Notes under the pieces: model-generated
Told to the model about the DNA's origin: nothing
The model's input: only the letters and a program-made list of their open reading frames with translations
Databases searched by the model: none
Position numbers and translations under genes: made by a program
Assembly: GCA_963781585.1 (NCBI GenBank)
Contig: CAWAGQ010000004.1
Span: 256,001-320,000 of the forward strand
Direction: 5' to 3'
DNA: 64,000 nt
From: an uncultured Gemmatimonadaceae bacterium
GTDB lineage: Bacteria; Gemmatimonadota; Gemmatimonadetes; Gemmatimonadales; Gemmatimonadaceae
Shown here: positions 1,875-20,988 of the stretch, piece by piece
How positions within the stretch are numbered: position 1 is the first letter of the stretch
How the letters are laid out: each line of letters begins with the position of its first letter

Positions 1875-1948
<74 letters not shown>

Positions 1949-2973: not shown

Positions 2974-3293
2974 AGTTGATTGGGAGGACGCGTGTGCAGT
3001 GCACACGTCGTATGGAAATCGTGCGCAAACTCGACCTCAGGAGACTGCGCACCATGGGCCTTCGTCACGATCTGCGCCCGCGTATGCCGCTGCCCGAGCG
3101 AGAGTTAGACTTTAGACGGCTATAGTCTGGCGGGTTGTGGCGCCGGGGAGATTGGTAGTCCCACCGGGCTGCCACGAGGGGATCGCAGGCCCGCTCATGC
3201 CCTTGCCCGTCCTGCCTCGCGGCGGGCTCTCATGCCGAATGCGAAGACGCGGTTGGTATCGGAGGCTTCGCGCCGTTATCGTCAGACCGGACT

Positions 3294-3367
3294 GGCAGGG
3301 TAGCTCAGGTGGTTAGAGCACGGCACTCATAATGCCGGGGTCGTGGGTTCGAGTCCCACCCCTGCTA
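3294..3367 (+). tRNA. tRNA with CAT anticodon (probably elongator tRNA-Met; Ile2 not excluded); island integration target
   Basis: GGCAGGG/CCCTGCT acceptor stem, CGGCA-CTCATAA-TGCCG anticodon arm, GTGGG-TTCGAGT-CCCAC T arm. Confidence 0.95.
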
Positions 3368-4626
3368 TTCGGAAGCCGCGGGCCCGCACCGGGTTGGCGG
3401 CTTTCCTCGTTAGGTGCCCCGGTTTTCGGTACCACCGGTGGTACCTCAGCCGACCGCGTCGGGCGCTTCGGATCAAGCTCCGCGGCGATCCGTTCCCAGC
3501 GATCGCGCTCGTCGGAGCGTGGCGCGTACCGGCCATACACGGTGGCCACCATCTGCACGTTGGCGTGGCCCAGCTGGCGCGCGACGAGTTCGTAGGGCGT
3601 GCCGGCGCGGATCGCCCGGATGGCGTAGAAGTGCCGCGCGTCGTGCAGCCGATGGGGCGCAAGCTCGAGTGCCGTGAGCGTCTCGCGGTGGACGTCGCCG
3701 GCGTGCCATCGATCGATGCCACGGAAGAGTCGCTCTCCCGGCGTCAGCCGGCGGACGTGGGTCTCGAGGTACGGCCAGGCCCACTCGGCGACCCGGACGA
3801 CGCGATCGCGCGCGTGCGCCTTCGTGCCGCGGGCGCGCACCTCGCGTCGGCCGACGTCCACGTCGGCATCGCTGCAGCGGAGCGCCGCCGAGATCTCGAC
3901 ACCGGCGCCGTACAGCAGCGCGAAGAGCGCGCGGTACGGCTTCCGCGCGTGCTCGACAATGCGCACCACGTCCTGGTGCACGAGCTCCACGACCCGAGGC
4001 CGCCCGGGTGGCGGAGCCGCGACGTCGCGCGCGGGGTTCGTCGTCAAGACGCCGACCTGGACGAGGTAGCCGGCGAAGCTCTGCACGGCGGCCAGGTACT
4101 TCCGGCGCGTTGATCCGGTGATCGGGCGTGATGCAGGATCCGGCCGACGTCGGGATTTCGCACGCGTCGATGCCTTTCGCTTCTGCGGGAGCGTGCTTCG
4201 CTCGGCGAGCCAGCGCGCGATCGCCGGCGCCGTGAATTCTGCGCGCGGGAACACACCGCCCTCGGGCATCAGCGTGCGCAGATGCGCCAGGTAGTGCGTG
4301 CGCGTATCTGGCCGAATCCGGTCCATCAGCCACTCTTGCCAGCGCTCCACGTGCTCAGCCAGGTCAACCTCCTCGAGGCGACCGCGCAGACCCTCGAGAT
4401 CGTTCTCGCGGTACGCGTCGAAGAGCGCACCGAGCGAGAGCGTGCCGTCGACGACCGCGCCCAGGAGATCCCACTCGCGCCGGCCCTTCGGCCCCAGCAC
4501 CTCGAGCATGCGCTCCATTGCCATCGCAGTGGGTTTGTGCGTCGTGCCCGTGGAACGCTTCACCCAGCCATGCGGGGTCGGCACAGCCAGAAACCAGGTC
4601 GGACGGTCGGTGCGCTTGTACACCAT
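3313..4626 (-). CDS. Tyrosine recombinase / phage integrase whose 3' end crosses attL
   Basis: GTK, HRLHDARHFYA and LGHANVQMVATVY catalytic-box motifs; N-terminal KRSTGT arm-binding-like region. The box I Arg position reads GVEISAA, so it may be atypical. Confidence 0.92.
   Translation of the reverse strand: MVYKRTDRPTWFLAVPTPHGWVKRSTGTTHKPTAMAMERMLEVLGPKGRREWDLLGAVVDGTLSLGALFDAYRENDLEGLRGRLEEVDLAEHVERWQEWLMDRIRPDTRTHYLAHLRTLMPEGGVFPRAEFTAPAIARWLAERSTLPQKRKASTRAKSRRRPDPASRPITGSTRRKYLAAVQSFAGYLVQVGVLTTNPARDVAAPPPGRPRVVELVHQDVVRIVEHARKPYRALFALLYGAGVEISAALRCSDADVDVGRREVRARGTKAHARDRVVRVAEWAWPYLETHVRRLTPGERLFRGIDRWHAGDVHRETLTALELAPHRLHDARHFYAIRAIRAGTPYELVARQLGHANVQMVATVYGRYAPRSDERDRWERIAAELDPKRPTRSAEVPPVVPKTGAPNEESRQPGAGPRLPNSRGGTRTHDPGIMSAVL
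3325..3372 (+). repeat. attL core (48 bp)
   Basis: ACTCATAATGCCGGGGTCGTGGGTTCGAGTCCCACCCCTGCTATTCGG identical to 21093-21140. Confidence 0.97.
3373..3404 (+). terminator. Island-supplied hairpin downstream of the tRNA
   Basis: AAGCCGC-gGGCCC...GGGTTg-GCGGCTT followed by T. Confidence 0.55.
3428..3445. repeat. Candidate integrase arm-type site
   Basis: Palindrome GGTACCACCGGTGGTACC, matched with 1 mismatch at 20989-21006. Confidence 0.6.
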
Positions 4627-4629
4627 GCG

Positions 4630-4878
4630 TTAGGCGCTCCGTTGGACGGCGTTCCTCGTGTGCCAGCGCGCCATCCAGGCGCGCACGTCGCGGGGATCGT
4701 ATCGCACGAGCGGCTGGCCCTTGGTGCCGGTACCAGGGAGCAGCACCTTCGGGCAGCCGCTCTCCCGAAGATAACGAGTACTGACGCGGAGAAAGGCGGC
4801 GGCTTCCTTCTGCGTCCAGAGGCCTTCCGCCGGCGACGTCTCGGCGCCGCGGAGCGAGCGGTCGACGGCGACCGTCAC
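4630..4878 (-). CDS. Excisionase-like HTH DNA-binding protein
   Basis: LWTQKEAAAFLRVSTRYLR ... VRYDPRDVRAW; directly upstream of the integrase; GTGA overlap with the upstream ORF. Confidence 0.75.
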   Translation of the reverse strand: MTVAVDRSLRGAETSPAEGLWTQKEAAAFLRVSTRYLRESGCPKVLLPGTGTKGQPLVRYDPRDVRAWMARWHTRNAVQRSA

Positions 4879-5609
4879 GGCGCGGCCCCGCGTGTGCAGC
4901 TTATGGGGGCGCACCCCACCGGATAATTCCGGGTGCACCCCGACGGCTGGCCCGCCCCGAGGTAGGGCTCCGGTGGGCCGGGAGGGTTCGGGAGATGGAC
5001 TGCGTGCGGCGCCGGATCCGGCACCGCCGGGTGCGTCGCCAAGGGCGGCGATGGATCCGCGAGCCCGATCAAGGCAGCATGACACTGCTCGAGCACCGCT
5101 GCGCAGTCTTCGTAGAACGCGGTCCAGCGCTCGTGCCAAGCCGCATCCCCCAGGTACTCGCACGGCGGGCGATCGGATGCTGACTGGTATTCCGACTTCG
5201 TTATCGCCGCCATCCAGAACCGGTGGCACTCCGCATCCTCCAGCATTTGCGGCACCAGCGCCAATGCTCGCGCTGCGAGATCTCGGAGTGGAGCGCCGCC
5301 GACAGCAGCCGGCGCGATCGGGGCGGTGGCACTGGCGCTCACCTGACGAGGCCCCGCGGATGGAGGAGCGCGCCGCGCGTGAGGAGTCCCGAGCCGCCAA
5401 GGGCCGCCAGGCTCGGCCCCGGGGAGCTCCCGCGGCCCGGCGCCGATCGTGGATCGCCCCGCAGAACCCGAGCGAGCGGCGAGTGGTCCGCTCCTTAGGC
5501 GTGGCATGGGAACGCGCTGCTCGCGCCGCCTGGCCTTGAGCCGCCGGGGCGGTCCTCGGTGATCCGCCTCGAGGAAGGCTGGGGTGGACCCGCAGGCCGG
5601 CGCCCTCAT
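4875..5609 (-). CDS. Hypothetical protein (start at ATG 5609 or GTG 5342)
   Basis: ATGA-type overlaps at both ends; helical C-terminal half LRDLAARALALVPQMLEDAE... Confidence 0.45.
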   Translation of the reverse strand: MRAPACGSTPAFLEADHRGPPRRLKARRREQRVPMPRLRSGPLAARSGSAGRSTIGAGPRELPGAEPGGPWRLGTPHARRAPPSAGPRQVSASATAPIAPAAVGGAPLRDLAARALALVPQMLEDAECHRFWMAAITKSEYQSASDRPPCEYLGDAAWHERWTAFYEDCAAVLEQCHAALIGLADPSPPLATHPAVPDPAPHAVHLPNPPGPPEPYLGAGQPSGCTRNYPVGCAPISCTRGAAP

Positions 5610-6106
5610 GCGAGCGCCACCTCGTATTCCGGAGGTGGCGCGACCGGCTCGAACTGTTCCGATGGCGGAGGCGGACGGCGTCCCGCTGCGGCCCGCTGCA
5701 GCAGCTCCCGGCGCGCGGGGTGATCCCAATCCAAGGGCACCAGAACCCACGAGAGATGCCGGCGCGGATCCCGCCGGTACTGCTCTTCCAGATGCCATTG
5801 ACGTGCCGTCTCAATGTCGAGCGGACCGGAGGCGAGGCCCGGATTGTTCGCACGCGTCGCCACGTAGCAGATCGCCCAGGTCACGGCATCCGGAACGGGG
5901 TACTCCGCCCGAGTGCCGCGCCGCCGAACCGGCAGGCCCTTTCGCGCCCAGTTGCGCAGCGTCTGGTCGGTGACGCCGAACGTCTTGCACATCACGTCCT
6001 GGGAGAGGTGCGCGGGGCGCCGGGGCGAGCGCGCAATTGGCGCGTGCAGCGTTAGGCTCGCGAACGGACTCGGCCTGGGCTGGCGGCGCTGGCGAGGCGT
6101 GCTCAT
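5606..6106 (-). CDS. Terminase small subunit-like (lambda Nu1-type winged HTH) protein
   Basis: LSQDVMCKTFGVTDQTLRNWARKGLPVRRRGTRAEYPVPDAVTW parallels the Nu1 N-terminal pattern (A-xx-FG-x-S-x-RTIQNW-xx-GMPV...Y...W). Confidence 0.6.
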   Translation of the reverse strand: MSTPRQRRQPRPSPFASLTLHAPIARSPRRPAHLSQDVMCKTFGVTDQTLRNWARKGLPVRRRGTRAEYPVPDAVTWAICYVATRANNPGLASGPLDIETARQWHLEEQYRRDPRRHLSWVLVPLDWDHPARRELLQRAAAGRRPPPPSEQFEPVAPPPEYEVALA

Positions 6107-6227
6107 CTCACCGGTGCCCACAAACCAAAAGGGTGCGTGCGGGCCGCCGTACAGAAGCCGATTGGGGTTCTCGGTCCCCCGGTGAAGACCTTCCAGGGAG
6201 GACCCGCGGCCCCCTCGGGGGCCCCTC

Positions 6228-6873
6228 GTCCGCGGACAAGTCCGCGCATGGTCCGCGGACTCATCGGGGAACTCCGAGCGCGCCCGGACGCTCGCCGTCG
6301 CCGCGAACCGCGACCAGGGGGGCGCAGTCGCAGATGCCGAGCCCGGCGAGCATCGCGCAGCCGGCGTCGTGGTGCACGTCGACCTGGATGACTTGGCCGG
6401 GCCGCAGCTCCAGCGCCCGGAGTAGCTCCAACGCGATCGGCATGTAGGCCGGTAGCTTCATGCGCCCTCCGCCAATGCCAGACGCGTCGCCTCTGGCTCG
6501 CTGAGCAGCCCCGGATTCTCTCCTTCTAGCAGCCCGCCGGCTCCGTCGCGGAGTCCAGCGTCTTGCCGGACAGTCCGTAGTCCGGGTCTTAGAGACCCGG
6601 ATACGGACGAACTACTGTCCGAGCAGTCAGACGCCCGAATGTCCGCGAACCGTTCGCGAACGGTTCGCGAACCGATTTCGAGACCCAGCTGAGTGATACC
6701 GGAAGGGGTGGGGTACCATTTCCCATCCCTGTTCTCGGCAACGAGTTCCCGCTTGATGAGCTCAGCCTTGATGGCGTAGAATCTCGTCTTGCCGATGCCG
6801 GATCGGTTCAGCCACTCCGTGGGCTTCAACGCGCGCGCGGATTCGTGCAAAGCGGCCAAAACGGTTCGCGAAC
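6228..6873. repeat. GTYCGCGRAC palindromic iteron-like arrays (candidate origin)
   Basis: Copies at 6228, 6240 (degenerate), 6251, 6641, 6652, 6663 and 6864; 21 bp exact repeat at 6659-6679 and 6860-6880. Confidence 0.65.
6261..6461 (-). CDS. Small hypothetical protein with HHD-xx-C...CDC motif
   Basis: 66 aa; ATGA overlap with the helicase stop. Confidence 0.55.
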   Translation of the reverse strand: MKLPAYMPIALELLRALELRPGQVIQVDVHHDAGCAMLAGLGICDCAPLVAVRGDGERPGALGVPR

Positions 6874-7612
6874 CGATTTCTAATGTTCCGGCTCCCGTCG
6901 CACGCTCCACGACGACTGAATCGCCGCGGCTCACGAGCTCGAGCAGAAGCGGATCTCCGGGCTGGAAATCCCGTGCCTTCACCACGGCGAGCTTCACCGT
7001 TGATCGGCCCATCCGCTCGACCGACATCACCACGTCCGCGCGCCCGCGGAAGGCCGAGGAGCCTCGCTCTCGGCTCCCTTCCCAGCCCGCATGGTGGTTG
7101 ATCAGGGCCGCGCAGCCGAGGGCGAGCTGCAGCCGGCCGACGCCGTGCAGGAATTCCCCGAAGTGTTGTGCGGAGTTTTCATCGAAGCCCGGGGGCGCGG
7201 TGGCGGCGAGCGTATCGATGATCACCAGGGCCGGTCTGAAATGCGCGGCCTCGAGCGCGGCCAGGAGCTCTGCGATTCCTTCGGGGAGGTGGAAGGCCAC
7301 CGGCTCCCCGAGATAGCGCACGCGTTCCAGGTTGCAGCTCTCGTGCGCGCTAATCCACGCCTGGACGCGCGAGGGGATGCCGCCGAAGCCCTCGGCGATG
7401 ACGTACAGCACGGACGAGGGGCCCGCTATCGGGAGCCCGGCGAATGAGCGCCCAGTGGCGATGCTGTGGCCCATGCCGATCAGCAGGTGCGTCTTCCCGA
7501 CGCCCGACGCGCCGTACATGACATGTAGGCAGCCCTCGAATACGAAGCCCGGGAGCAGCGCCGGAATCGGCTTGGCGTCGGCAAGGAGCTCCTCGGCGGT
7601 AATCAGTTTCAT
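6458..7612 (-). CDS. AAA_25 / RepA-like (RecA-family) replicative helicase with C-terminal wHTH
   Basis: Walker A GASGVGKT, VLYVIAEG, Walker B VIIDTL, HHAG...RGSSAF motif. Confidence 0.85.
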   Translation of the reverse strand: MKLITAEELLADAKPIPALLPGFVFEGCLHVMYGASGVGKTHLLIGMGHSIATGRSFAGLPIAGPSSVLYVIAEGFGGIPSRVQAWISAHESCNLERVRYLGEPVAFHLPEGIAELLAALEAAHFRPALVIIDTLAATAPPGFDENSAQHFGEFLHGVGRLQLALGCAALINHHAGWEGSRERGSSAFRGRADVVMSVERMGRSTVKLAVVKARDFQPGDPLLLELVSRGDSVVVERATGAGTLEIGSRTVLAALHESARALKPTEWLNRSGIGKTRFYAIKAELIKRELVAENRDGKWYPTPSGITQLGLEIGSRTVRERFADIRASDCSDSSSSVSGSLRPGLRTVRQDAGLRDGAGGLLEGENPGLLSEPEATRLALAEGA

Positions 7613-7914
7613 CGCCCGCTCCTCAGCACGGGCCGAATCGAACTCGCGCGCCGCGAGCCGCCTGATGATTGGCGAGCTTCGCGTCGGGCCAGCTCTAGCT
7701 CGAGTGCGTTCAAGCCTCGCGTTAGGATGCCGAGGAGGACCGGGCCCCGGTGCGGCGCTGGCTTCCTCGCGACGTCGACGAGCCAGGCGCGCATGACCAG
7801 GCGCCGTCGCTCGAGCTCGGTGGTCGGGCCTGACGCGTAGGCCCGCAGGGCGGCTTCTCGTGCCGCGTCGTCGATCATGCCCGCACGCTCCACGTTGCCT
7901 TTCCCCGCACGCAA
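7609..7914 (-). CDS. Hypothetical protein
   Basis: In-operon ORF; stop overlaps the helicase ATG. Confidence 0.45.
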   Translation of the reverse strand: MRAGKGNVERAGMIDDAAREAALRAYASGPTTELERRRLVMRAWLVDVARKPAPHRGPVLLGILTRGLNALELELARREARQSSGGSRRASSIRPVLRSGR

Positions 7915-7924
7915 GGGGGCCGCC

Positions 7925-8167
7925 TCATTTCGCGGCTCTCTGCGCGAGCTCCGCCTTCGCGCGCTGGAGCGCCGCGATCAGCTCGTCGAGGCGGTGCGGC
8001 GGAACCGTGACGCCCTTGCGCGTGGGGTGCCATCCCCCGTCGGCGGCGCGGAAATACGTCCGCACGTCGACGAATTGGGCGTCCTTGTATCGCCCCACCT
8101 GAATCTGCAGCCGCTCGCCGTCGCGGCCCTTCGCGATGACGGCCAGAGGCGCCGCGGTGTCGCTCAT
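7925..8167 (-). CDS. PC4/YdbC-family ssDNA-binding protein
   Basis: GRYKDAQFVDVRTYF...WHPTRKGVTV signature. Confidence 0.85.
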   Translation of the reverse strand: MSDTAAPLAVIAKGRDGERLQIQVGRYKDAQFVDVRTYFRAADGGWHPTRKGVTVPPHRLDELIAALQRAKAELAQRAAK

Positions 8168-8493
8168 CGCGACCCCCCGACTCGATCGAGAGCGCGGCGC
8201 AGCTCCCGCAGTTCATTCGCGCGGAAGTTGAGGCCCCTCCTCGTCGGCAGCCACTTGCCATCGGTGGTCTTGAAGAACTGGCGAAACCCAATCTGACGGA
8301 CTCCCTTGAAAGTCCCGACCGTCAGCCAGATTTGGGTCGTCTCGTCGCGCGGGAAGCGCGCGAGGATGCGCAGCGGACTCGCGGGGGCAGGCGCGGGCAG
8401 ATTCCCTCGCGGGGGGCTGGCGCGCCGCGAGGCATCGTGTCTACTTTTCAAACGCTCAGGTTGCATGTTGACCAGAGTGGTTTGTGGATTCAT
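8164..8493 (-). CDS. Second PC4/YdbC-like protein
   Basis: GTFKGVRQIGFRQFF...GKWLPTRRGLNF...ELRELRRAL. Confidence 0.75.
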   Translation of the reverse strand: MNPQTTLVNMQPERLKSRHDASRRASPPRGNLPAPAPASPLRILARFPRDETTQIWLTVGTFKGVRQIGFRQFFKTTDGKWLPTRRGLNFRANELRELRRALDRVGGSR

Positions 8494-8539
8494 GTCGCGC
8501 GCCCCCGCGGATGCCATCGTCGGGGGCGCGGTGCTTTTT

Positions 8540-9313
8540 CTAGCCTTTAGCGCCCGTGACCATCGGCGCGTATCCGGGCGTGACGCGCGGCCCCGTCGGC
8601 GTACCCGGCTTCTCCGACGCCGATTTCTGCTCGCGGCGGACGACGCGACGCGGCGCCGCATCCGGACCGCCCGGGTTGCGCGTGCGGTGGTAGAAGGGCT
8701 GCGCCACCCCACCGCCTAAGCTCGGCGGCGATGTGAGATCCGGAATCAGCACGCTGTCGTCATACCTGAGCATTCGCTCATGGCCACGGATGATTTCGAC
8801 ATCCTCGCCTTCCAGCACATCGTCCAGCTCTGCGGCTCGGCCGGATTTCTTGACGGCATAGTACAGGCGGTCTTCCTCGCTTAACGCGGCCTTGTCGCTG
8901 GCGAGCGCAACGCCCACGGCACGCAGCATCATCTGGTGCTCGACGGCCGCCCGGTACCGGGCGGTCCGCATGGCGCGGTACGCTGCGATGTCGACGTCTT
9001 CAGTCGCCCTCTTCAGCTCGGCTTCGCTCGCCGCGAGTCGCTGCTCGGCTGCGCGCCGGCGGATTTCGAGGCGCCGGATCTCGTCGCCGAGGCTCCGAAT
9101 CTCGCTATCGCGGGCCGGCAGATGGAGGGGCACCTCCTGCTGCAGATCCGCCTGCAGCTGCTTCTCCGCTTGCGCGTGGCGCTCCTTCGCGGCGGCAAGC
9201 TCCGCGTCGATGTCCGCGAGCCGGTGTCGCGCCTTCTCGACGTCGGCAGCGGGGGTCTCGACGTCTGCTCTGCCGGCGTCGGCGTGCGCTCGTGCGGTGC
9301 GTGCTTGACTCAT
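8540..9313 (-). CDS. Coiled-coil hypothetical protein
   Basis: 257 aa; long heptad-rich A/E/R helices. Confidence 0.7.
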   Translation of the reverse strand: MSQARTARAHADAGRADVETPAADVEKARHRLADIDAELAAAKERHAQAEKQLQADLQQEVPLHLPARDSEIRSLGDEIRRLEIRRRAAEQRLAASEAELKRATEDVDIAAYRAMRTARYRAAVEHQMMLRAVGVALASDKAALSEEDRLYYAVKKSGRAAELDDVLEGEDVEIIRGHERMLRYDDSVLIPDLTSPPSLGGGVAQPFYHRTRNPGGPDAAPRRVVRREQKSASEKPGTPTGPRVTPGYAPMVTGAKG

Positions 9314-9354
9314 CTGTGGACCTATTGGCGGGAAGGAAAGTGAGAGCGCGCCGC

Positions 9355-9984
9355 CTAACGCGAGCCGAGCGCGCCGGTTCGTTCCGGGAAGAAGCTGGCG
9401 GCCCGGCGTTCGATCGGGTCAGGAGAGTCCGGCCGCGCGAAGCCCGGGTGCGCGAGGGCGTGGCTTTCCTCCACCAGCTGATCCTCCCGGCTCAGGCGAT
9501 CGCGTTCCGCCCGGAGATCCGCGGCCAGGATCCTCGGGCAGGTTCCGGCGCTCAGCGCTAGGTCAAAAAGCGGCCGGAGACGCGGATCGGGGAATTGGCG
9601 CGCGAGCGCCTCGAAGGCGGCGCGCCTGCGCGCTGCTTTCTCTGCTGCCGTCGGAGGGGCCGGCGCCGGCGCGGCGGCATGCATGGGGGGCACCGCTACC
9701 GCCACCGCTTCTGGCTTTGGGCGCGGCGCTGGCGCCGGCTTTGCCGACGGCACCTGGCACCGTGGGGTAGCCGATGACGGGGTGCGGAGCGCGAGCGCCA
9801 ATCGGGCTCGTGCGTGTGGTCCGTCATCACCCGCGTGCAGGAAGGCTTCGACGCGCCTGGCCATCGCGAAGACCTCGAGCGGGTCGCTGGCTAGACGCGC
9901 GCGCACGGCGGCGACGTCGATCTCCCGGACGAAAACCAGGCCTTCGTTCACCAGGGCGAGCGCGGAGCGAGCGTCCTCGATCAT
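9355..9984 (-). CDS. Hypothetical protein
   Basis: 209 aa; ATGA overlap with the upstream HTH gene; Pro/Ala linker. Confidence 0.55.
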   Translation of the reverse strand: MIEDARSALALVNEGLVFVREIDVAAVRARLASDPLEVFAMARRVEAFLHAGDDGPHARARLALALRTPSSATPRCQVPSAKPAPAPRPKPEAVAVAVPPMHAAAPAPAPPTAAEKAARRRAAFEALARQFPDPRLRPLFDLALSAGTCPRILAADLRAERDRLSREDQLVEESHALAHPGFARPDSPDPIERRAASFFPERTGALGSR

Positions 9985-10199
9985 CGGACGCCCCCCGCAC
10001 CTGCCATGGGCCGCAGATGCGAAAACGAGTCACTATCCCGGAGCGCATTGAGCACGGTGCGGCGGATGAAGTAGCGTTGTCCGACCGTTCCCTCAACGAT
10101 CACGCCCGCGACGTTGCCGAGCTGCATTTGTCGGAGGAGACGCTCGCGGCTCATCCGCAGCTCGAATGCGGCGCGACTGATGGGTACGAGATCATCCAT
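9981..10199 (-). CDS. Small HTH regulator (Cro/AlpA/Xis-like), first gene of the leftward operon
   Basis: LVPISRAAFELRMSRERLLRQMQLGNV; divergent from the XRE repressor; purine-rich RBS-like sequence upstream not clearly seen. Confidence 0.65.
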   Translation of the reverse strand: MDDLVPISRAAFELRMSRERLLRQMQLGNVAGVIVEGTVGQRYFIRRTVLNALRDSDSFSHLRPMAGAGGVR

Positions 10200-10291
10200 G
10201 GAGAGACCCCTTGACGGTTATGCGCGCGGCAATAGCTTTACGTGTGCAGCGTATACATCGCGTGCCATCAACGTAGACGAGAGCGTACACA

Positions 10292-10999
10292 ATGGCAAGG
10301 GGAGAACTTCTGGAAGACTCTTTGCGCGAACGCCTGGCGCAGCTGGTGAGAGCACGGTACCCGGACAGCGTCAACCGGGCTGCGCGTTCCATCGGCATTC
10401 CACAGCCGACACTGCACAGCATTCTTTCGGGAAGAACGGCCGAACCCCGGGTGCCCATCGTGCAGAAGATCGCTGCGCATTTCGGCGTCACGATCGATTG
10501 GTTGCTCACTGGCAGCGGCAATGCCGAAGCGCCCGAACACTCCGGACGGCCGACGCCACATTCCGAGCGAGCGCTGCAGGCCGTGGATCTGAATCCGCGC
10601 CTCCTCGGCCAATGGCTGAATTCCGTGCCAGGCGTACTCCACTCCGTCTTTCAGGTGATTGACCGAGAGCGTCTCATCGGAGACTATCCGAAGGGAACGA
10701 CGACGCAGGCCGTGGCCACGGTGAAGCGGCGCCAGGCGAATGAGTATCTCGATCGGTCCCTGGCCTTGGCCATCGAGGTTCTGATTCTGGAGCGCGGCCC
10801 GGAGCGCGCCCGTGAAGCACTGTCCCGCCCCGATGTGCTCGCGGCCCTCTCGCATTTGAGAGTCGATACGCCCGGGCCGACCGTCGAGGAAGTGGAGCAC
10901 TGGCGTAGCTATATCGATCAGGCCCCGAACTCGACCGGCGCGTCCGTAGGATCCCTTAGCCCGCGCCGCCGGAAGCACTCGCCGAAAAGAAAGCGTTAG
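10292..10999 (+). CDS. XRE-family HTH repressor (CI/Stl-like)
   Basis: SVNRAARSIGIPQPTLHSILSGRTAEPRVPIVQKIAAHFGVTIDWLLTG. Confidence 0.88.
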   Translation: MARGELLEDSLRERLAQLVRARYPDSVNRAARSIGIPQPTLHSILSGRTAEPRVPIVQKIAAHFGVTIDWLLTGSGNAEAPEHSGRPTPHSERALQAVDLNPRLLGQWLNSVPGVLHSVFQVIDRERLIGDYPKGTTTQAVATVKRRQANEYLDRSLALAIEVLILERGPERAREALSRPDVLAALSHLRVDTPGPTVEEVEHWRSYIDQAPNSTGASVGSLSPRRRKHSPKRKR

Positions 11000-11007
11000 G
11001 CGCACGC

Positions 11008-11370
11008 TCAGGGGGCGAGCCTCGGGCCCATCGGGTCGATGCGATCGAGGTGCTGCTCGAGCCACGCGATCGCGTCGAGCACGTCCTCGTACTCCCAGCT
11101 GCGGCCCTCACCCCACCAGGGCAGCGTGAGCTCCGCGATGACAACGCCGGTCGACGTCCGCGCCGCCAGGCGCGTGAGACCGCCGGCGGCCGGCAGCTGC
11201 ACCACGCCGCGCTCGCCTGGCCAGTCGCGCCCCTCGGGCTGATCCCCGGCGTCCGCCCGCTCGACGAGCGAGACCGTCCTCCGCCGATGCTTCACTCCCG
11301 CGTTGTTGCTGGGCAGGCTCTCGCCCATCCCATGATCCCCGCGCCTCCGGAAGCGGTTACTTCGCGGCAT
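11008..11370 (-). CDS. Hypothetical protein downstream of the ImmA-like gene
   Basis: Co-oriented ORF overlapping the ImmA-like stop. Confidence 0.4.
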   Translation of the reverse strand: MPRSNRFRRRGDHGMGESLPSNNAGVKHRRRTVSLVERADAGDQPEGRDWPGERGVVQLPAAGGLTRLAARTSTGVVIAELTLPWWGEGRSWEYEDVLDAIAWLEQHLDRIDPMGPRLAP

Positions 11371-11860
11371 GATCCGCCCCCGTTACATCGCGCCGCGTGG
11401 AGTCAACGGAGGCCGCGCCCGTGCCGCCGTGCTGCCCCGCCAGGAGGCGATCGACAAAGAGATCGGCTTCCACCTCGACTTGCGCATCGATCGTGGCACT
11501 GCGGGCCGGCGCGGCGTCGCCAACGTGGTTCAGCGCAATGTGCGCGAGCTCGTGGAGCACGGTGCGGACCAGGGCTGCTCCGCTGAGCTGCACGTGCACC
11601 AGGATCACGGCGACACCGCCGGCGGCGAAGACGAGCCCGGGTCGCGGGAGCGGCGCGCGGATCAGCACGATGCGTTCGCGCTCGAGCACCGCGATGAGGC
11701 TGGCGATGGTGATCTCACGGCGGAACTCCGGGTGCCGCTGGCGCCACGCTTCGACGGCCAGGCGCACGGTCAGCACGCGCGGCCGCAGCCGGCGCAGCGG
11801 CTCTCTGGGGAACGGGACGAGCGCCGACGTCGGCGCCGTGTACGGGACTGCGGTGGCCAT
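11357..11860 (-). CDS. ImmA/IrrE-family Zn metallopeptidase
   Basis: RTVLHELAHIAL ... EVEADLF (HExxH plus ExxA[DN]xF); GGAGG-like RBS. Confidence 0.82.
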   Translation of the reverse strand: MATAVPYTAPTSALVPFPREPLRRLRPRVLTVRLAVEAWRQRHPEFRREITIASLIAVLERERIVLIRAPLPRPGLVFAAGGVAVILVHVQLSGAALVRTVLHELAHIALNHVGDAAPARSATIDAQVEVEADLFVDRLLAGQHGGTGAASVDSTRRDVTGADHAAK

Positions 11861-11990
11861 GAGGATCCCCTCCGGACTGGTGGCGCCCGGAGGCCCGCCC
11901 GCGCTACCTTACGCGCGCAGGCCCTCGGGTCTGTGGGGAGCCAGTCGGAGATCCTTCCTGGGAGACACCGGCTGGCTCTTTCTATGCCGG

Positions 11991-12039
11991 AGATTATACG
12001 CAAAAGCGAATTGCGTCAATATGCAGCTTTGCGTATAGT
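11991..12039. promoter_or_regulatory. Overlapping divergent sigma70-like promoters with an inverted-repeat operator
   Basis: Plus strand TTGCGT(12011)-17-TATAGT(12034); minus strand TTGACG(12019)-17-TAATCT(11996); IR TATACGCAAA (11995-12004) / TTTGCGTATA (12028-12037). Confidence 0.65.
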
Positions 12040-12047
12040 GCAGTCCC

Positions 12048-12272
12048 GTGAGTCCGATCCGCCTCCGACTGCGCGAGCTCCGCGAAGCGAAGGGCCTCTC
12101 ACAACAGGCCCTGGGAGAGCGCGCCGGCGTCCGCCAGGCGACGATCTCGCAGCTCGAATCTGGACGCAAGCAGCGACTCGATTTCGGAATCCTCGAGCGT
12201 CTCGCCGACGCTCTCGGCGTGGAACCGGGCGAGCTCCTCGAGCGGGACGGGAAGCGGAAACGGGCTCGTTGA
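12048..12272 (+). CDS. XRE-family HTH transcriptional regulator
   Basis: RLRELREAKGLSQQALGERAGVRQATISQLESG...LADALGVEPGELL. Confidence 0.93.
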   Translation: MSPIRLRLRELREAKGLSQQALGERAGVRQATISQLESGRKQRLDFGILERLADALGVEPGELLERDGKRKRAR

Positions 12273-12275
12273 AAG

Positions 12276-13040
12276 ATGGCCGACATCAGTAGGGCCCTTG
12301 TTGAATCAGTCGCGCGTGGCCTGGACGTCGCGCACGAATTCCTGGATGGGGTCGAGGATCTCGGCGGACACATCGGGCTGATCCAAAAAGCCTTCAACGG
12401 TGTCCAGCAAGCACGTCTGAGGCGCTTTCTGCGCGCATTGGCTGCGCGGGAGCAGGAATTGACCGATGAAGAACGGGAGCAGCTCTACAAGCGACTCGAC
12501 ACGAGAGCTGGCAGGGAGCTCCTGGTTGACGCAGTCGACGCAGTCATCCGAACGAATTCGAAGCGCGCGGCCGCCGCTCTCGGACTCCTTATCGGGGATC
12601 CTTCCGGTGAGCGGTTCAATCCGAGCTTCCGGCGTAATGCGTGCGAGGCTCTGCGCGGACTCTCAGACGACCAGGTTGACCTTTTTCTCGCGTTGCTCCG
12701 AATAGCGCGCGAAGTACCGCAGCAATCTCAACGCACGATTCAGGGCGACGAATACGTAACGGACATTGGCATTTGGCACGCTGCGGCAAACGCCCAAGGG
12801 GTCAGCCTCCTCATTCAGCCCTTATACGCAAGACTCGGCCTAGACCCTTGGACTATCAGAAGTCGCACAAATCAGTTGATCACGCGCGGGCTCTTATTGC
12901 CGGACGTAGGGACGCGCGTGGACACCCAAGAATATCTGACTTTCGCATTCGGTGGCGAGTCCCTCCTGTTCGAGGATCTCTTCGTACGCGCTCGAGGCGC
13001 GATCGGTCCCGACGGAGATGACAGCGAACTCTCGAGGTGA
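12276..13040 (+). CDS. Hypothetical accessory protein (loosely Abi-alpha/DUF4393-like)
   Basis: 254 aa; lower GC; RLRRFL...LLVDAVDAVIRTNS...LRGLSDDQVDLF pattern. Confidence 0.65.
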   Translation: MADISRALVESVARGLDVAHEFLDGVEDLGGHIGLIQKAFNGVQQARLRRFLRALAAREQELTDEEREQLYKRLDTRAGRELLVDAVDAVIRTNSKRAAAALGLLIGDPSGERFNPSFRRNACEALRGLSDDQVDLFLALLRIAREVPQQSQRTIQGDEYVTDIGIWHAAANAQGVSLLIQPLYARLGLDPWTIRSRTNQLITRGLLLPDVGTRVDTQEYLTFAFGGESLLFEDLFVRARGAIGPDGDDSELSR

Positions 13041-13211
13041 TCGGACGAGGATTCGGACGCCTCCCGCTGCTCCAGATCTGGGACCGGCTGGACTGTATGG
13101 GGGGAAGGAGGAGAGGGGGGTCTGTACGCACAGGGAGCACTCCGGCCATCCCTCCACTGGCTCATCCCCAGGTTGCCAACGGCACTGCCACCACGTCACG
13201 TTACTTAGCGA

Positions 13212-14051
13212 ATGCCCGCACCACTTGTCGCCCCCGACTCCCTGCAGATCAGGCGCTCTGCATTTGCCCAGATCTACAGTCGACCTATTGAGATCCAGCG
13301 CGCCGAGGCTCTTGCGTTCTATGAGCTGATCACTCGAGACATCGGGCACTTTCCCGAGATGCTGAACCAGCCAACCGGGCTCGTGTTCAAGCGGCGCGCC
13401 GGCCAACACGTCTCGGAGGTACAGGTGAATCGCGTGAACATCGCCGGCCAACCACGTGGACCAGCGCCTGCGGCAACTCGGTTTCTATTTGCAGAGACGG
13501 GATCGACGCGCCCCGTCTCCGAGTTCAGCGCCGAAGTGGCTGCTGCGGTGGAGGCCTTCCGATCGAAGTGGCACAGCGTCGGCCGGGTCACGGTGACGGA
13601 GGTGTCCTTTCAAGCCACTGTCGCTGTGAACCACCCGGAGGGGTCAATGGGCTTCATCCGAGAGAGACTGGTCCCATCCGCAAACGACAAGGCACATCTC
13701 GGGCGCGATTTCCCAATCGCCCAAGTGAGGCTGACTGCTCCGCTCCAGCTCATCGCCGAGGGCGGACAGAGCGAGCCGCGTCATATACTCGACGATGCCG
13801 AAATCAGCCTGAGGTTGGAGCCCTTCGCCGAGGACCCCCGTTTCCTCTGGCTCGAATCCATTTATAAGTGGCCCCTTGTCCAGATGAGCCTGCAGGATGT
13901 GCCCATACCCGATGACGTTCGTTCAAGTCTCCCCCTCGGCCGCTCTCTGGAAGTCAATCAGAGCGAACGTGAAACGACTAGCTACATCACTGCGGGCTAC
14001 AACTATGTGAACAACAATGTCACCCCGTACCTCCAAGCGCTGGGTCGCTGA
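13212..14051 (+). CDS. Hypothetical accessory protein (possibly TIGR04255-like)
   Basis: 279 aa; lower GC; first of three co-oriented genes. Confidence 0.65.
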   Translation: MPAPLVAPDSLQIRRSAFAQIYSRPIEIQRAEALAFYELITRDIGHFPEMLNQPTGLVFKRRAGQHVSEVQVNRVNIAGQPRGPAPAATRFLFAETGSTRPVSEFSAEVAAAVEAFRSKWHSVGRVTVTEVSFQATVAVNHPEGSMGFIRERLVPSANDKAHLGRDFPIAQVRLTAPLQLIAEGGQSEPRHILDDAEISLRLEPFAEDPRFLWLESIYKWPLVQMSLQDVPIPDDVRSSLPLGRSLEVNQSERETTSYITAGYNYVNNNVTPYLQALGR

Positions 14052-14071
14052 TTCTCCGGGAGACGCTTCGA

Positions 14072-14368
14072 ATGTCAACCCTTACCAGTGCAAACCCGCT
14101 CGAGGTGTCCATGTCTGAATCTGGCGGGATGTTGCCAGTGCCGATCTTGGTCCTCGCCCTTTCGCTGCAGGGAGTCACGATCACCGACGCTCGGCCGCCG
14201 ATGGCGGTCGCACCCGCAGCCCTTCCAATCGGCGCGGCGACGCAGGGAGGCGATGCCCTGTCGTTTGCAGATGACGACCTCATGCCGGTCGGTCTCTCGA
14301 CCATGGAGCTGGCTGCCATGGCCCGCGGTCGTATGGGCGGAGACGCGAATCACATGCTCGACATCTGA
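14072..14368 (+). CDS. Small acidic hypothetical protein (antitoxin-like position)
   Basis: 98 aa (or shorter, from ATG 14111 after a GAGGTG RBS); lies between the 13212 and 14399 genes. Confidence 0.5.
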   Translation: MSTLTSANPLEVSMSESGGMLPVPILVLALSLQGVTITDARPPMAVAPAALPIGAATQGGDALSFADDDLMPVGLSTMELAAMARGRMGGDANHMLDI

Positions 14369-14382
14369 CCAACGGGAGGCCT

Positions 14383-14836
14383 GTCCCCCTGTTCGAAGAT
14401 GCCAGCGGTCCGCTCTCACAGGGGGACCTCTTTCTCGTCGGACTGGGACGAGGACCGCGCGACACGATTGGGTGCGGTCCTTGTCTTGAATCATTCGTGC
14501 GAGCTTGACAAATCCGCCGTGGACTTGGTCCTCGTCGCGCGCGTGATCCCTCGCATGGGAACGGACCCGGGACTATGGGGCGACATCCAGCGCGGTCGAG
14601 TGTGGCACGCCTTGCTCGCGGAGGGACTGATGCCGGAGGCTTGGATCAGTCTCCGGGAAATCCTTCCCATATCGAAAGCGGTGCTGATAGAACGGATTGC
14701 ACGCAGAAGGCTTACTCTTACAGAATCCGGTCGCCTCGCGCTGGCCGAGAAGGTGTTCCAGTGGCTCACTAGGAGCTTGCCGCCCGCCAAGCGCGGCCCA
14801 CAGCTCTCATTTCCTATCACCGATCCCCGGCCGTAG
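14383..14836 (+). pseudogene. Remote PemK/MazF-like toxin candidate with a 1-bp frameshift near 14432 (possibly an assembly error)
   Basis: PLFEDASGPLSQGDLF lies in one frame after GGGAGG; DWDED...VLVLNHSCELDK...VFQWLTR lies in the next frame. Confidence 0.5.
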
Positions 14837-14922
14837 TCCAACACGGGTAGCCGCCGCCGGTGCGATCTTCCGCTCCGCGACCGATGGGGTAGGTTCCGAA
14901 GCAGTCCCGTCATGGAGCGCCG

Positions 14923-15303
14923 GTGCCACGACCCTCGCTGAGGCCCACCTGGACCGAGCAGGCCCTCCGCCTGATCGGATGGGTCACGGTCATCGTGTCG
15001 ATCTTCGCGGGCATGGCATGGCTCGCGAATTCTGGCTCCGATCCCGCGGCCGCGGCATACGGCGTCGCTGCAATGCTCGTCGGGCTCTGCGCGGCGCCGG
15101 TGACGTTCGCGCTCGCGGAGATCCTCGAGCGATTGCGCCTCACTCAGGAGCGCGCGCTGCAGTCCGAGTGGGATCGCGAGCATCCGAGGTCCGAGACGCC
15201 GCCGCCGGCGACCAGGCGCGATAGAGAGCGGAGCAGGGAAGCACCGGTGCCGGCACCGGCACCTGCGCGTCAGCCAGATGCAGCCCCGCGGCGATTCCGC
15301 TGA
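14923..15303 (+). CDS. Two-TM membrane protein
   Basis: Hydrophobic segments LIGWVTVIVSIFAGMAWL and YGVAAMLVGLCAAPVTFAL. Confidence 0.65.
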   Translation: MPRPSLRPTWTEQALRLIGWVTVIVSIFAGMAWLANSGSDPAAAAYGVAAMLVGLCAAPVTFALAEILERLRLTQERALQSEWDREHPRSETPPPATRRDRERSREAPVPAPAPARQPDAAPRRFR

Positions 15304-15759
15304 GGCGACGTTAGGCATAGCATGTCGAGAACCGCTCCGGCGTTCCCAGGCTGTGGCCTGATCCCTCTTTGCCTCCCAAGGAGCTCAGGATGCCGGTGGC
15401 TTTGGGGGACCAGGCGAGTCCGGATGGCACTTTTTCCGCTTCTTCCCGGACCCGCACCCGCATCCGGCGCAACGGGTGGGCCCCGACACAAAGAGCGCTC
15501 CTGGCCGGCGAACGCGGTCCCGGGTCCGGCATCGGCGGCTTTACGATCTGCAGGACCTCGCCCGCGCGGCGACGTTCTGGGAGACGCGAATGCCCGGCGT
15601 GCCATCGGCGCTGCGTATCGACATTGAACGCCTGGTGCAGCTGACGGCGCCATCTCCTGGCCGCACGAGGGGGTGAGCTCTCCGCCGTCCCACGGCCCGT
15701 ACCATTGGCATTGCCCGAAAGTCGCCCGGGGCCGTCGGGGGACCCGGCGAGATCGGGCC

Positions 15760-16092
15760 TCAGGCGTGATCGTGCGAAGCCGGGGCGGGTGTCGGCGTCG
15801 CGGCGAGCGGTGAAGCTGCCGGCGCGGGGTCCCGGGAAAAATGAAGGCGGTACTCGCGGGTCCGGCGGTCTGGTGACGCCTGCGCCTCGAGGTAGCCGGC
15901 GCCGCTGAGGCGACGCAGCGCGACGCTCGCCGTGGACTCGCTCACCACGGCCAGGCGCGCGACGACGACGAGCTTCACGTGCCGGAACTCCACGAAGTCG
16001 AGCACGTCGCTGATCGCGAGGAGCACGCGCACATCCGCGGCCCGGAGCTCCGGCGCGCCGGCGGCCTGGGCGATCGCCGGAAAGAGCGTCAC
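15760..16092 (-). CDS. Winged-helix (MarR/RepL-like) DNA-binding protein
   Basis: ADVRVLLAI...VVARLAVVSESTASVALRRLSGAGYL...YRL; begins 1 nt after the TMP stop. Confidence 0.7.
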   Translation of the reverse strand: MTLFPAIAQAAGAPELRAADVRVLLAISDVLDFVEFRHVKLVVVARLAVVSESTASVALRRLSGAGYLEAQASPDRRTREYRLHFSRDPAPAASPLAATPTPAPASHDHA

Positions 16093-16093
16093 G

Positions 16094-20371: not shown

Positions 20372-20377
20372 CGCCGG

Positions 20378-20950
20378 TCACTCCAGCGGGAGAAGGGAGG
20401 ACTGCGCTCGATTGCCGAAGATCATCAGCAGTTTCAGATAGTCCTGGACCGCCTTGAATCGCTGGAGGGCCAGGAGCGCGGTCTCGGGCCCGATCATGGC
20501 GCCCTCGTGGAGCGCCTGGGTGGCGCGCTCAAGATCGCTGATCCCCTGGTGAATCACCCGAATGCTGGCGCCGATTACGCCCGCCAAGTCGACGAGTCGC
20601 GCCTCCTCGGCCGGCGTTCGCCCGGGCCTCGCCGCCAGCCGGCGATAGTGCTCGTTCTGTTCGAGCAGGCGCCCCCCCCCGAGCTGCGCCGAGAGCCGCA
20701 TGACCCCCTCATGCCCGAGGACGGCCCCGATGGTCTTGTCGAGTGATCGGAGCGCTGAGGCCCGCTCTGCGTCGTTGAGGGTCGCATCCTCGGGCGTCGC
20801 GGGGGCCGTGAAGACCTGCCGGATCCGGCCGAGCTCCGCGAGCATCTGATCGGCGAGCTGCTCGCGGTAGGCGAAGGCGGCCTCGGTGAACTCGCGCAGC
20901 AGCGCGGGCTCGATGCCCGGAAAGATCGGCGGCGTCCGCGGCGCGATCAT
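20378..20950 (-). CDS. Helical hypothetical protein directly upstream of the TMP (tail chaperone position)
   Basis: 190 aa; GAGG-type RBS not obvious; ends 6 nt before the TMP ATG. Confidence 0.65.
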   Translation of the reverse strand: MIAPRTPPIFPGIEPALLREFTEAAFAYREQLADQMLAELGRIRQVFTAPATPEDATLNDAERASALRSLDKTIGAVLGHEGVMRLSAQLGGGRLLEQNEHYRRLAARPGRTPAEEARLVDLAGVIGASIRVIHQGISDLERATQALHEGAMIGPETALLALQRFKAVQDYLKLLMIFGNRAQSSLLPLE

Positions 20951-20988
20951 CGACCCGCGGTCGCTCGACGTCCGAGGCGCGGCCACCT

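Follow-up and report, generated by a model that had tools for sequence, protein, structure and literature searches.

The window, the whole stretch of 64,000 nucleotides analyzed from an uncultured Gemmatimonadaceae bacterium, contains an integrated element at a tRNA-Met gene (Table 1). The tRNA gene is intact at attL, where the element provides its 3' part, and the displaced 3' fragment lies at attR, where ARAGORN called no tRNA over the core. The direct repeat 3320-3379/21088-21147 showed mismatches solely at positions 3323, 3324, and 3373, which delimits the exact 48-bp block listed in Table 1. This block begins at 3325, in the anticodon loop, and the anticodon CAT occupies 3328-3330. An exact 48-bp repeat matching the 3' part of a tRNA gene beside an integrase gene is not a product of chance. 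With a full tRNA gene and a directly oriented, displaced 3' fragment on either side of an integrase gene, the element is a member of the Islander-type tRNA-gene islands and does not differ from them in kind; an anticodon-centered attP class is described for these islands in the available part of PMC4383910, and the opening of the identity block at the anticodon loop corresponds to Islander class A. The host flank beyond attR was 89% identical to a genome of the same genus.

Table 1 Features of the element and its att sites in the window
Feature	Coordinates	Strand	Source or remark
tRNA-Met(CAT), integration target, intact at attL	3293..3368	+	ARAGORN
attL core, exact 48-bp identity block from the anticodon loop to beyond the tRNA 3' end	3325..3372		repeat search (family D1)
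attR core, displaced tRNA 3' fragment without the 5' half	21093..21140		repeat search
Integrated element body, ~17.7 kb	3373..21092		
Tyrosine integrase ORF, 437 aa in the integrated state	3313..4626	-	ORF list, PF00589, phrog_1
Codons 386-418, variable predicted-disordered tail over the attP P' arm	3373..3471	-	pLDDT
Integrated-state codons Ala-Val-Leu-stop, from the tRNA 5' half	3313..3324	-	
Predicted circular-state codons RVDPEGESAAPGENEE and TGA stop (21042-21044)	21042..21092	-	read at the attR side
GGTACC-N6-GGTACC pair, candidate arm-type site (P' arm), translated VPPVVP	3428..3445		
GGTACC-N6-GGTACC pair, candidate arm-type site (P arm), 86 nt off the core	20989..21006		
Hairpin right after the reconstituted tRNA, element-supplied, crossed by the integrase ORF	3371..3405	+	fold -27.4 kcal/mol, z -2.9
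Native hairpin on the host side, following the displaced tRNA fragment	21140..21171	+	fold -33.4 kcal/mol, z -5.7

The cargo of the element comprises the integrase, a MerR-like HTH protein, an AAA_25 helicase-like protein, a PC4-like protein, an HTH_3 repressor-like protein, an M78-like peptidase, and a helical protein of 1425 aa. The MerR-like protein, encoded at 5606-6121, is a candidate excision factor. The sole HTH_3 repressor-like ORF (10292-10999) lies about 7 kb from attL and 10 kb from attR. For the 1425-aa protein, no family was found in NCBIfam, PHROGs, or Pfam; Atlas gave weak leads to tape measure proteins (0.90-0.91). No promoter or terminator was called by consensus scanning in the vicinity of either att site, and both post-tRNA hairpins, which likewise received no terminator call, were seen by folding only. 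The motif GGTACC-N6-GGTACC had two matches in the 64 kb, compared to 0.10 expected by chance, and both adjoin the core. The P arms of the window and of loci L091 and L015 align gap-free, with the stop codon and the arm repeats sharing columns.

The integrase matched PF00589 over residues 216-365 with 37.3 bits (cut-off 27.1), and its match to the phrog_1 integrase (E 5.9e-32) extended to residue 389. In a 32-sequence alignment, K269, R331, H332, H354, and Y364 were invariant and R222 nearly so; catalytic roles were assigned to the individual residues by reading motifs. AlphaFold2 predicted a folded protein up to helix 371-384 and a pLDDT below 50 over residues 395-437, and the predicted strands 11-17 and 20-25, followed by a helix, would fit an arm-binding domain. 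According to this model, the folded integrase ends at about residue 385 and is followed by a predicted-disordered tail of about 50 residues, which in both the alignment and the model follows the last helix after the catalytic Tyr. The tail is read over the P' arm with its two GGTACC repeats, the post-tRNA hairpin, and 16 core codons. Its GC3 was 0.57, compared to 0.80 in the body of the integrase gene, and its residues were not conserved beyond what DNA motifs and the tRNA dictate; the recurring peptide motifs GTxxGT and VPPVVP are accounted for by DNA-level motifs.

The integrase ORF crosses the 48-bp core and stops within the antisense of the tRNA-Met gene. In the integrated state, the protein has 437 aa and ends in ...THDPGIMSAVL; its stop codon TAA is the reverse complement of TTA at 3313-3315 in the D-arm region of the tRNA, residues 421-437 are antisense of the tRNA, and Met433 is the reverse complement of the CAT anticodon. 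In the predicted circular form, ...GIMS would be followed by RVDPEGESAAPGENEE, a Pro/Ser-rich acidic end from the P arm, which gives 434 + 16 = 450 aa. This tail was taken from the contiguous attR side, and the circle, its transcript and the isoforms are in silico constructs; a search for sequencing runs covering 3200-13000 of the window returned none. The last five residues read MSAVL in the prophage and GENEE in the predicted circle, and on integration the catalytic domain stays whole, with 434 of the 450 codons kept together. The first-pass annotation had placed the att core within the integrase ORF and proposed that integration exchanges the C-terminus, with lengths of 437 aa integrated and 450 aa circular. 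Reading from the attL and attR sides led to the same core position, the same exchange (AVL for 16 acidic residues), and the same lengths.

The tRNA can be read antisense in three frames. The first of these terminates at the tRNA 3' end and a second in the anticodon loop inside the core; the integrase frame is the sole one passing the crossover point and the sole one with a state-dependent end. In the prophage, the circular-state codons belong to ORF 21042-21959, which looks non-coding (GC1/2/3 of 0.57/0.76/0.73). The host genome, with 66-68% G+C, contains long spurious ORFs, and this one also spans the core.

Homologues were picked and scored on integrase residues 1-380 only, which avoided bias from the tail. 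Among the 86 homologues with at least 54% identity, 61 ended in ..IMSAVL, 10 passed the core into another tail, 4 ended otherwise and had a complete catalytic domain (P0035, P0067, P0071, and P0072), and 11 were cut or frameshifted upstream. The tail could be judged in 75, of which 71 run through the core in the same frame; the homologues are kin rather than independent cases, and read-through falls into two blocks of the tree. Proteins with another tail include P0005, on a contig of 16,947 bases, as well as P0008, P0010, P0023, P0034, P0037, and P0103. A stop before att in close homologues, which the first-pass annotation had named as evidence against its reading, was thus not what was found at this level of identity. 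Such stops were present in the distant relatives (45-53% identity), 23 of 33 of which end near WERIAAxQD, and at loci L010, L035, L036, L039, L040, and L041 the stop before att occurred at the same tRNA. Since relatives of this kind work at the same tRNA with a pre-att stop, the tail is dispensable for the enzyme family as such. Species-representative genomes with read-through were found at L011 (same genus, 44-47% identity), L029, L033, and L038.

At the DNA level, the other two tail frames of 16 read-through loci hold 13 and 31 stops in 524 codons, so that only about one in four neutral tails of 33 codons would be open; zero stops in the integrase frame of these loci is a consequence of how the loci were chosen. 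Within the selected read-through loci, the tail length ranged from 30 to 123 nt and was in frame throughout. The search pattern for the metagenome loci was derived from the tRNA-coded tail and is biased to read-through; these loci serve as DNA examples and not for counts. A single-protein search of genome contigs yielded one true relative, and a core search of viral contigs yielded six loci, mostly already in the sample. Because the frame is retained among the close homologues, whose tails vary in length and sequence, the open frame across att is, as judged from the predicted reading frames, not due to chance. The comparison shows that the predicted tail is kept open, in the state-dependent frame, over a large clade of Gemmatimonadota integrases.

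Among 14 circle-type or tandem-type tails, 8 had exactly 16 residues and a net charge of -2 to -5, and the end was acidic in 10, which extends to relatives the acidic circular-form end noted in the first-pass annotation. The tails of L060, P0046, and P0094 are non-acidic, that of L060, a relative on a phage contig, being a short basic circle-type tail. The tail in the window has a net charge of -5, a value attained by 0.2-0.3% of the 16-codon stretches without a stop across all six frames of the window. Differences among three elements in the 16 circle-specific codons were even across codon positions, and conservation of the P arm runs beyond the stop codon; both the constant length and the composition, which is purine-rich and so acidic, could therefore reflect the P arm as DNA. 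In L091, a full tRNA lies 5 kb further on, so its tail comes from a tandem or remnant arrangement and was rejected as a true circle tail; at least some of the cases with another tail, L091 included, stem from tandem arrays and not from circles. No similarity was found between the L091 ORF 1454-2029 (+), which follows the core, and the window ORF 20378-21010.

The Myxococcus phage Mx8 has the nearest layout. The conversion of intP into intX on integration was reportedly described by Tojo et al. in 1996 and by Magrini et al. in 1999. The first-pass annotation had named Mx8 int as a precedent, and rightly so according to the available excerpts of PMC4383910 and PMC6070905, in which attP lies within the int coding sequence and integration produces a gene with a new 3' end and a still active enzyme; the effect of the swap reviewed in the accessible part of PMC6070905 is on integrase specificity, not stability. 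The two systems share a tyrosine integrase, attP inside int, and an enzyme whose catalytic part is kept on integration, a likeness of layout. In the window, in contrast, the swap is tiny, 3 versus 16 residues at the end of a predicted-disordered tail, the tRNA antisense encodes that part of the tail which both forms share, and the layout is common to a whole clade of Gemmatimonadota integrases targeting tRNA-Met.

Integration-dependent immunity of the mycobacteriophage BPs and its relatives is said to have been described by Broussard et al. in 2013. In BPs, attP is inside the repressor gene, and the viral form with a C-terminal ssrA-like degron is unstable, whereas the prophage form is stable (excerpts of PMC4557955, Villanueva et al. 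2015); the BPs integrase also bears a C-terminal proteolysis signal (same excerpts). In both cases, attP lies within a gene and the DNA state sets the C-terminus, but the crossed gene is the repressor in BPs and the integrase here, with the repressor-like ORF 10292-10999 far from att. The mycobacteriophage precedent of the first-pass annotation thus applies to an att site in a gene acting as a state switch but not to its polarity, which is opposite in BPs and acts on the repressor (PMC4557955, in part). Immunity of the BPs type was rejected, as attP is outside the repressor-like ORF, the circle form ends in GENEE, and the host tag ends in LALAA.

The integrases of SSV-type archaeal viruses have the recombination site inside the integrase ORF (parts of PMC7253208 and PMC4383910). 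Their gene is split in two, whereas here only the extreme end changes; a self-splitting integrase of this type was rejected, as integration leaves the catalytic domain whole and 434 of 450 codons joined. In ICEKp1, the DNA state of the element alters integrase output by promoter switching (excerpts of PMC13023037). That switch is transcriptional, with a promoter brought by circularization, whereas here int keeps its promoter side within the element, integrated or circular, and it is the protein C-terminus that changes. No description of the layout in Gemmatimonadota or in tRNA-Met-targeting integrases was found in the literature searched, which was of limited coverage.

We consider it probable that an integrative element of roughly 17.7 kb sits in the window at the tRNA-Met anticodon loop, with the attP core inside the 3' end of int in the manner of Mx8 IntP/IntX, a translated and selected tail, and two state-reporting isoforms. 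That the tail is translated and under selection is what we infer, and from this it would follow that the element makes two integrase isoforms that report the DNA state. Integration would place the core in tRNA-Met, and the integrase would then end in AVL from the tRNA 5' half; after excision to the circle, it would end in the 16-residue acidic Pro/Ser-rich peptide from the P arm. The two C-termini would report the DNA state and adjust integrase level or activity. Most likely, the isoform difference tunes the level or activity of the integrase between circle and prophage, in one direction or the other.

Other explanations differ in what they make of the tail. A true integrase ending near ...AAELDP, with the remainder an untranslated chance extension, could be imagined in GC-rich DNA, since long spurious ORFs occur at 66-68% G+C, among them 21042-21959, which crosses the core as well; this very improbable explanation was rejected, as it is contradicted by frame retention in 71 of 75 close homologues with tails varied in length and sequence and by the stops in the other frames of the same DNA. 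Possible, if doubtful, is a neutral swap, in which the tail is translated, the ORF overprints the cis-acting attP, and selection acts only for continued translation through the arm, for example because a linker is needed or because ribosomes have to stay on an mRNA whose end is antisense to an abundant tRNA; the final residues would then be of no consequence. The low GC3, the absence of residue conservation, the derivation of GTxxGT and VPPVVP from DNA-level motifs, and the existence of short-tailed relatives are consistent with such a swap, but it leaves unexplained the use of the state-dependent frame of three in 71 of 75 and the recurrent 16-residue acidic end.

The first-pass annotation had proposed a degradation tag (-AVL) on the prophage form and a stable circular form. 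Put specifically, the nonpolar end -MSAVL, carried by a disordered tail, would be recognized as a degron by a cytoplasmic AAA+ protease and -GENEE would protect, so that the prophage integrase would be short-lived and the circle form stable. We regard this as plausible but unlikely. According to work attributed to the Sauer laboratory, nonpolar C-terminal residues reportedly destabilize and charged ones stabilize reporter proteins in Escherichia coli. Tsp/Prc is periplasmic, and Tsp, one of the proteases suggested in the first-pass annotation, was rejected because it is for this reason unlikely to act on a cytoplasmic integrase. The proposal is favored by the predicted disorder of the tail, which would suit protease engagement, by the ends MSAVL and GENEE with acidic ends in 10 of 14 circle-type or tandem-type tails, by a conserved frame that is the very one making the end state-dependent, and by the C-terminal proteolysis signal of the BPs integrase (PMC4557955, in part). 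However, AVL is set by the tRNA and could not be shaped by selection, the host tmRNA (SsrA) tag LALAA resembles it only in being nonpolar, acidity may be a by-product of the purine-rich P-arm strand, L060, P0046, and P0094 have non-acidic tails, and the polarity in BPs is reversed, with the viral form degraded (PMC4557955, in part). Quite unlikely is the wider form of this idea, a recombination-written C-terminal stability code conserved in a Gemmatimonadota-wide integrase family, in which the 16-residue acidic cap would hide the end of the disordered tail and give a long-lived circle integrase favoring integration, and AVL from the tRNA 5' half would cause clearance that locks the prophage, so that the half-life of the protein would record the DNA state with no regulator. 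Instead of stability, the ends could alter recombination activity, site preference or directionality as in Mx8, for example through an acidic tail modulating arm binding or protomer contacts, and to this we also assign a low probability. The tail comes after the last helix following the catalytic Tyr, and in lambda Int and Cre the position after this helix regulates cleavage in trans; on the other hand, the tail is long and predicted to be disordered, makes no modeled contact, and differs in only 3 versus 16 residues.

The state-dependent integrase end is a layout already known from Mx8, here in a clade of integrases of soil bacteria. For annotation, this means that gene prediction regularly gives integrases of the clade a final 17 residues encoded antisense to tRNA-Met, and that island finders need to permit an integrase ORF overlapping the tRNA fragment. 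The conserved attP geometry, made up of the core, 16 codons with their stop, and arm repeats lying about 86 and 56 nt away from the core, is a requirement for an integrase tool in Gemmatimonadota. If the two isoforms of the preferred explanation differ in stability or activity, they would provide a very simple feedback from the DNA state to the recombinase dose, and this feedback would be common to many elements of an abundant, little-studied soil phylum.

The tyrosine integrase of the integrated element carries a Phage_integrase domain at residues 216 to 365 and a PHROG integrase match up to residue 389. Its catalytic Lys, His-x-x-Arg, His, and Tyr364 were invariant among 32 homologues, and the named matches of the family fall in Gemmatimonadaceae. 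The frame spans the entire core and stops at a TAA (reverse complement of 3313–3315) in the tRNA D-arm region. Residues 421 to 437 (SRGGTRTHDPGIMSAVL) are antisense to the tRNA, and the ATG of Met433 corresponds to the CAT anticodon (3328–3330) of the target tRNA-Met read on the opposite strand. Read from the attR side, the frame goes on with RVDPEGESAAPGENEE to a TGA at 21042–21044, giving a predicted circle form of 450 aa. The first-pass annotation had proposed that the ORF reads through att and that integration exchanges the integrase C terminus; its coordinates and both peptide ends proved correct for the ORF, the repeat, and the attR frame, and the sequence confirms the exchange, with the circle form predicted. 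In the prophage, the 16 circle-specific codons belong to an ORF with a noncoding codon-position GC pattern, which overlaps a ROK-family gene in a different frame.

Coordinates of the integrase, its tRNA target, and other features of the window
Feature	Position	Strand	Remark
tRNA-Met(CAT), upstream	1875–1949	+	ARAGORN
Prepilin-type N-methylation-motif protein	2021–2494	−	
tRNA-Met(CAT), target	3293–3368	+	ARAGORN
Integrase ORF	3313–4626	−	437 aa
attL core	3325–3372		48 bp exact repeat
Hairpin, element-supplied	3371–3405		−27.4 kcal/mol (folding); directly 3' of tRNA
GGTACC-N6-GGTACC, candidate arm-type site	3428–3445		56 nt right of core
AAA_25 helicase-like gene	6458–7612	−	
21-nt repeat, three copies	6648–6679 and 6860–6880		3' part of the AAA_25 helicase-like gene
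1425-aa helix-rich protein	16094–20371	−	right end of element
GGTACC-N6-GGTACC, candidate arm-type site	20989–21006		86 nt left of core, other arm
ORF with the circle-specific codons	21042–21959		
attR core	21093–21140		48 bp exact repeat, without tRNA 5' half
Hairpin, native, remaining at attR	21140–21171		−33.4 kcal/mol (folding)
ROK-family gene	21457–22161		ROK match E 4.9e-4, under Pfam cut-off

The window sits on contig C4 of a 5.7-Mb genome in 17 contigs. The direct repeat (3320–3379 and 21088–21147) has mismatches at three positions only, which delimit the exact block; this starts at the anticodon loop and ends four bases beyond the tRNA 3' end. No tRNA 5' half was present at the right copy, by ARAGORN and by its sequence. 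The two core copies lie ~17.7 kb apart with the integrase at the left end, directed towards the tRNA, an arrangement that classically marks the insertion of an island into the anticodon loop of a tRNA gene. The second tRNA-Met(CAT) gene lies 1.3 kb upstream of the target and looks initiator-like in its anticodon stem (GGG/CCC, judged by eye); the prepilin-type protein and one more ORF occupy the interval between the two tRNAs (2021–3006). Genes for a capsid, portal, or terminase were not recognized in the element, which may be a satellite, a remnant, or something else. The 1425-aa protein matched no family in Pfam, PHROG, or NCBIfam and gave weak Atlas leads to phage tape measure proteins (0.90–0.91). 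The 21-nt repeats share the palindrome-like AACGGTTCGCGAACC as their basis and may represent iterons or an origin.

At a genome G+C content of 66 to 68%, long spurious ORFs are common, and the open frame alone is therefore little evidence. Because the tail coded by the tRNA supplies shared words, which biased an initial protein search, homologues were picked and scored on residues 1 to 380 only, and their C termini were then classified. Among 86 homologues at ≥54% identity, 61 end in IMSAVL, 10 cross the core in the same frame into a different tail, four have a complete catalytic domain and a different ending (P0035, P0067, P0071, and P0072), four end within the catalytic domain, probably at cut contigs, and seven carry a frameshift or truncation upstream. 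The expectation that close homologues lack a stop before att held at this identity, the core being crossed by 71 of the 75 judgeable proteins, but failed at 45 to 53% identity, where 23/33 stop soon after the conserved WERIAAxQD helix (5/33 end in IMSAVL, 1/33 ends in the core, and 4/33 are broken). When residues 1 to 385 were searched exhaustively against 50%-identity cluster representatives, nine of the 150 best showed tRNA-Met read-through, and a few more showed read-through of a tRNA in another frame or of another tRNA; more distant representatives mostly stop early, in agreement with the count on residues 1 to 380.

Among loci adjoining tRNA-Met in species-representative genomes, read-through was found in the window, L011, L029, L033, and L038, and a stop 57 to 270 nt ahead of the tRNA in L010, L035, L036, L039, L040, L041, and L059, or ~24 nt ahead in L055; L013, L017, and L019 were broken or scarred. 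In a tree of 206 catalytic domains, read-through fell into two blocks, one large and one small, and required 12 parsimony changes; kin in this tree are not independent, but the tails vary greatly in both sequence and length. For 16 read-through loci available as DNA, 30 to 123 nt separate residue 385 from the tRNA-coded part, and the other two frames of the tail contain 13 and 31 stops in 524 codons, zero stops in the integrase frame being a product of locus selection. A neutral tail of ~33 codons would be open about one time in four, before counting frameshifts. One tRNA antisense frame stops at the tRNA 3' end (3365–3367) and one in the anticodon loop within the core (3327–3329); the integrase frame alone extends past the crossover point, and the family thus keeps the sole frame with a DNA-state-dependent C terminus, with rare exceptions ending in TPAL (P0186, P0235, and L085/L086). 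The read-through is a conserved family trait and no accident.

Other branches of the family (P0125, P0127, P0219, and L034) have frames running through other tRNAs in antisense (...GAGGLEPPT... and ...GVGIEPTT...), and att-crossing ORFs recur with other targets. In the distant relatives L063, an IMG/VR contig, and P0179, a tRNA-Met fragment is read in sense orientation (...THNAGVAGSSPAPAT...), the integrase being oriented oppositely relative to it.

The left flank and tRNA are nearly identical in a same-genus genome (L011), and the host flank right of attR shares 89% identity with it. There, at G001:C25 (~245.6–303.5 kb; L011 and L153), the same tRNA-Met locus holds a ~57-kb tandem array, beyond which the conserved host flank resumes. 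The array contains three or more additional core copies (near 272.6, 274.4, and 245.7 kb) as well as a remnant of an integrase at 272.6 kb, and the locus is thus a hot spot with tandem elements. At L013 (1370–1530; G018:C3), two short tRNA 3'-end fragments, which look like scars of earlier insertions, lie between the integrase and the full tRNA-Met; the integrase frame passes through both and stops at the tRNA 3' end.

AlphaFold2 with a 32-sequence alignment gave a confident fold up to helix 371–384 and pLDDT <50 for residues 395 to 437, and the tail is predicted to be a disordered extension. Its DNA doubles as attP. GGTACC-N6-GGTACC occurs twice in the 64-kb window, compared to 0.10 expected, and relatives carry repeat pairs of their own, spaced by 12 nt, in the same place and at the same distances from the core, translated as recurring GTxxGT, GAxxGA, CTxxCT, YHxxYH, or VPxxVP motifs. 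The two copies of each pair co-vary from element to element, as expected of arm-type integrase sites and not of a protein motif, and these pairs are candidate sites. Codon-position GC in the tail (0.67/0.51/0.57) differs from the gene body (0.73/0.50/0.80); the tail is thus unusual for coding sequence, which would be expected of a stretch overprinting cis-acting DNA. Neither of the hairpins beside the two core copies was called a terminator by the consensus scan.

Fourteen tails following a core without the tRNA 5' half were compared, namely, the window's own, ten proteins (P0005, P0008, P0010, P0023, P0034, P0037, P0041, P0046, P0094, and P0103), and three loci (L015, L060, and L091, whose tail is shared by L092 and L093); L015, from the unpublished genome G008, supplies a single tail to this set and a single arm to the three aligned below, and none of the counts rests on it alone. 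Exactly 16 residues with a net charge of −2 to −5 were found in eight tails, with ends including DDEE, DDAE, DPEA, DNAE, ESEA, EKAE, and ENEE. P0010 and P0034 have longer tails with acidic ends too, and four (P0046, P0094, L060, and P0041) are nonacidic, short or long. The charge of the window's circle tail, −5, is reached by 0.2 to 0.3% of stop-free 16-codon stretches in the six frames of the window. A full tRNA-Met 5 kb past the L091 core rules out its tail as a circle form; this integrase reads into another element or remnant, and the proteins with other tails thus come variously from circles, phage genomes, and tandem arrays. Alignment of the window's P arm with those of L091 and L015 required no gaps and placed the stop codon, the conserved block around and past it, and the arm repeats in the same columns; differences among the three in the 16 circle-specific codons were spread evenly over codon positions. 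The fixed length and the composition of this end are conserved, its residues are not, a pattern that fits a disordered peptide under compositional constraint and a purine-rich P-arm DNA element alike.

With the attP core within int and the tail kept open in a conserved, state-dependent frame, two integrase isoforms are predicted, one per DNA state. The tail is very probably translated; a function for the isoform difference is more tentative, its chances falling slightly short of even. The first-pass annotation had the nonpolar prophage end and the acidic circle end set integrase stability. This minority reading agrees with the predicted disorder and with the contrast of MSAVL to GENEE, SDDEE, or similar ends, but the tRNA itself fixes AVL, LALAA is the end of the host SsrA tag, and Tsp, one of the proteases named, is periplasmic. 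It competes with a neutral swap, in which all that would matter is that translation carries on across the arm, and with an exchanged end that, by analogy with myxophage Mx8, would alter integrase activity or specificity. Transcription convergent with that of the tRNA gene, putatively a feature of the prophage but not of the circle, would also be state dependent without any protein difference.

The layout is of a kind already known from Mx8, and the Gemmatimonadota integrase adds another case. Tojo et al. 1996 and Magrini et al. 1999, by their titles, reportedly described a structural change at the IntP C terminus. The new 3' end in Mx8 modified integrase specificity without inactivation, according to the excerpted text of PMC6070905. 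In mycobacteriophage BPs, it is the repressor gene that contains attP, and an ssrA-like tag directs degradation of the viral form (excerpt of PMC4557955), a related idea in which the crossed gene differs and the polarity is opposite to that proposed for the integrase ends. Archaeal SSV-type integrases are split by integration (excerpt of PMC7253208), whereas the catalytic domain remains whole here. No description of an att-inside-int layout for Gemmatimonadota or for tRNA-Met-targeting integrases was found in the literature searched. For this family, the conserved acidic circle-specific end provides a clear, testable hypothesis.
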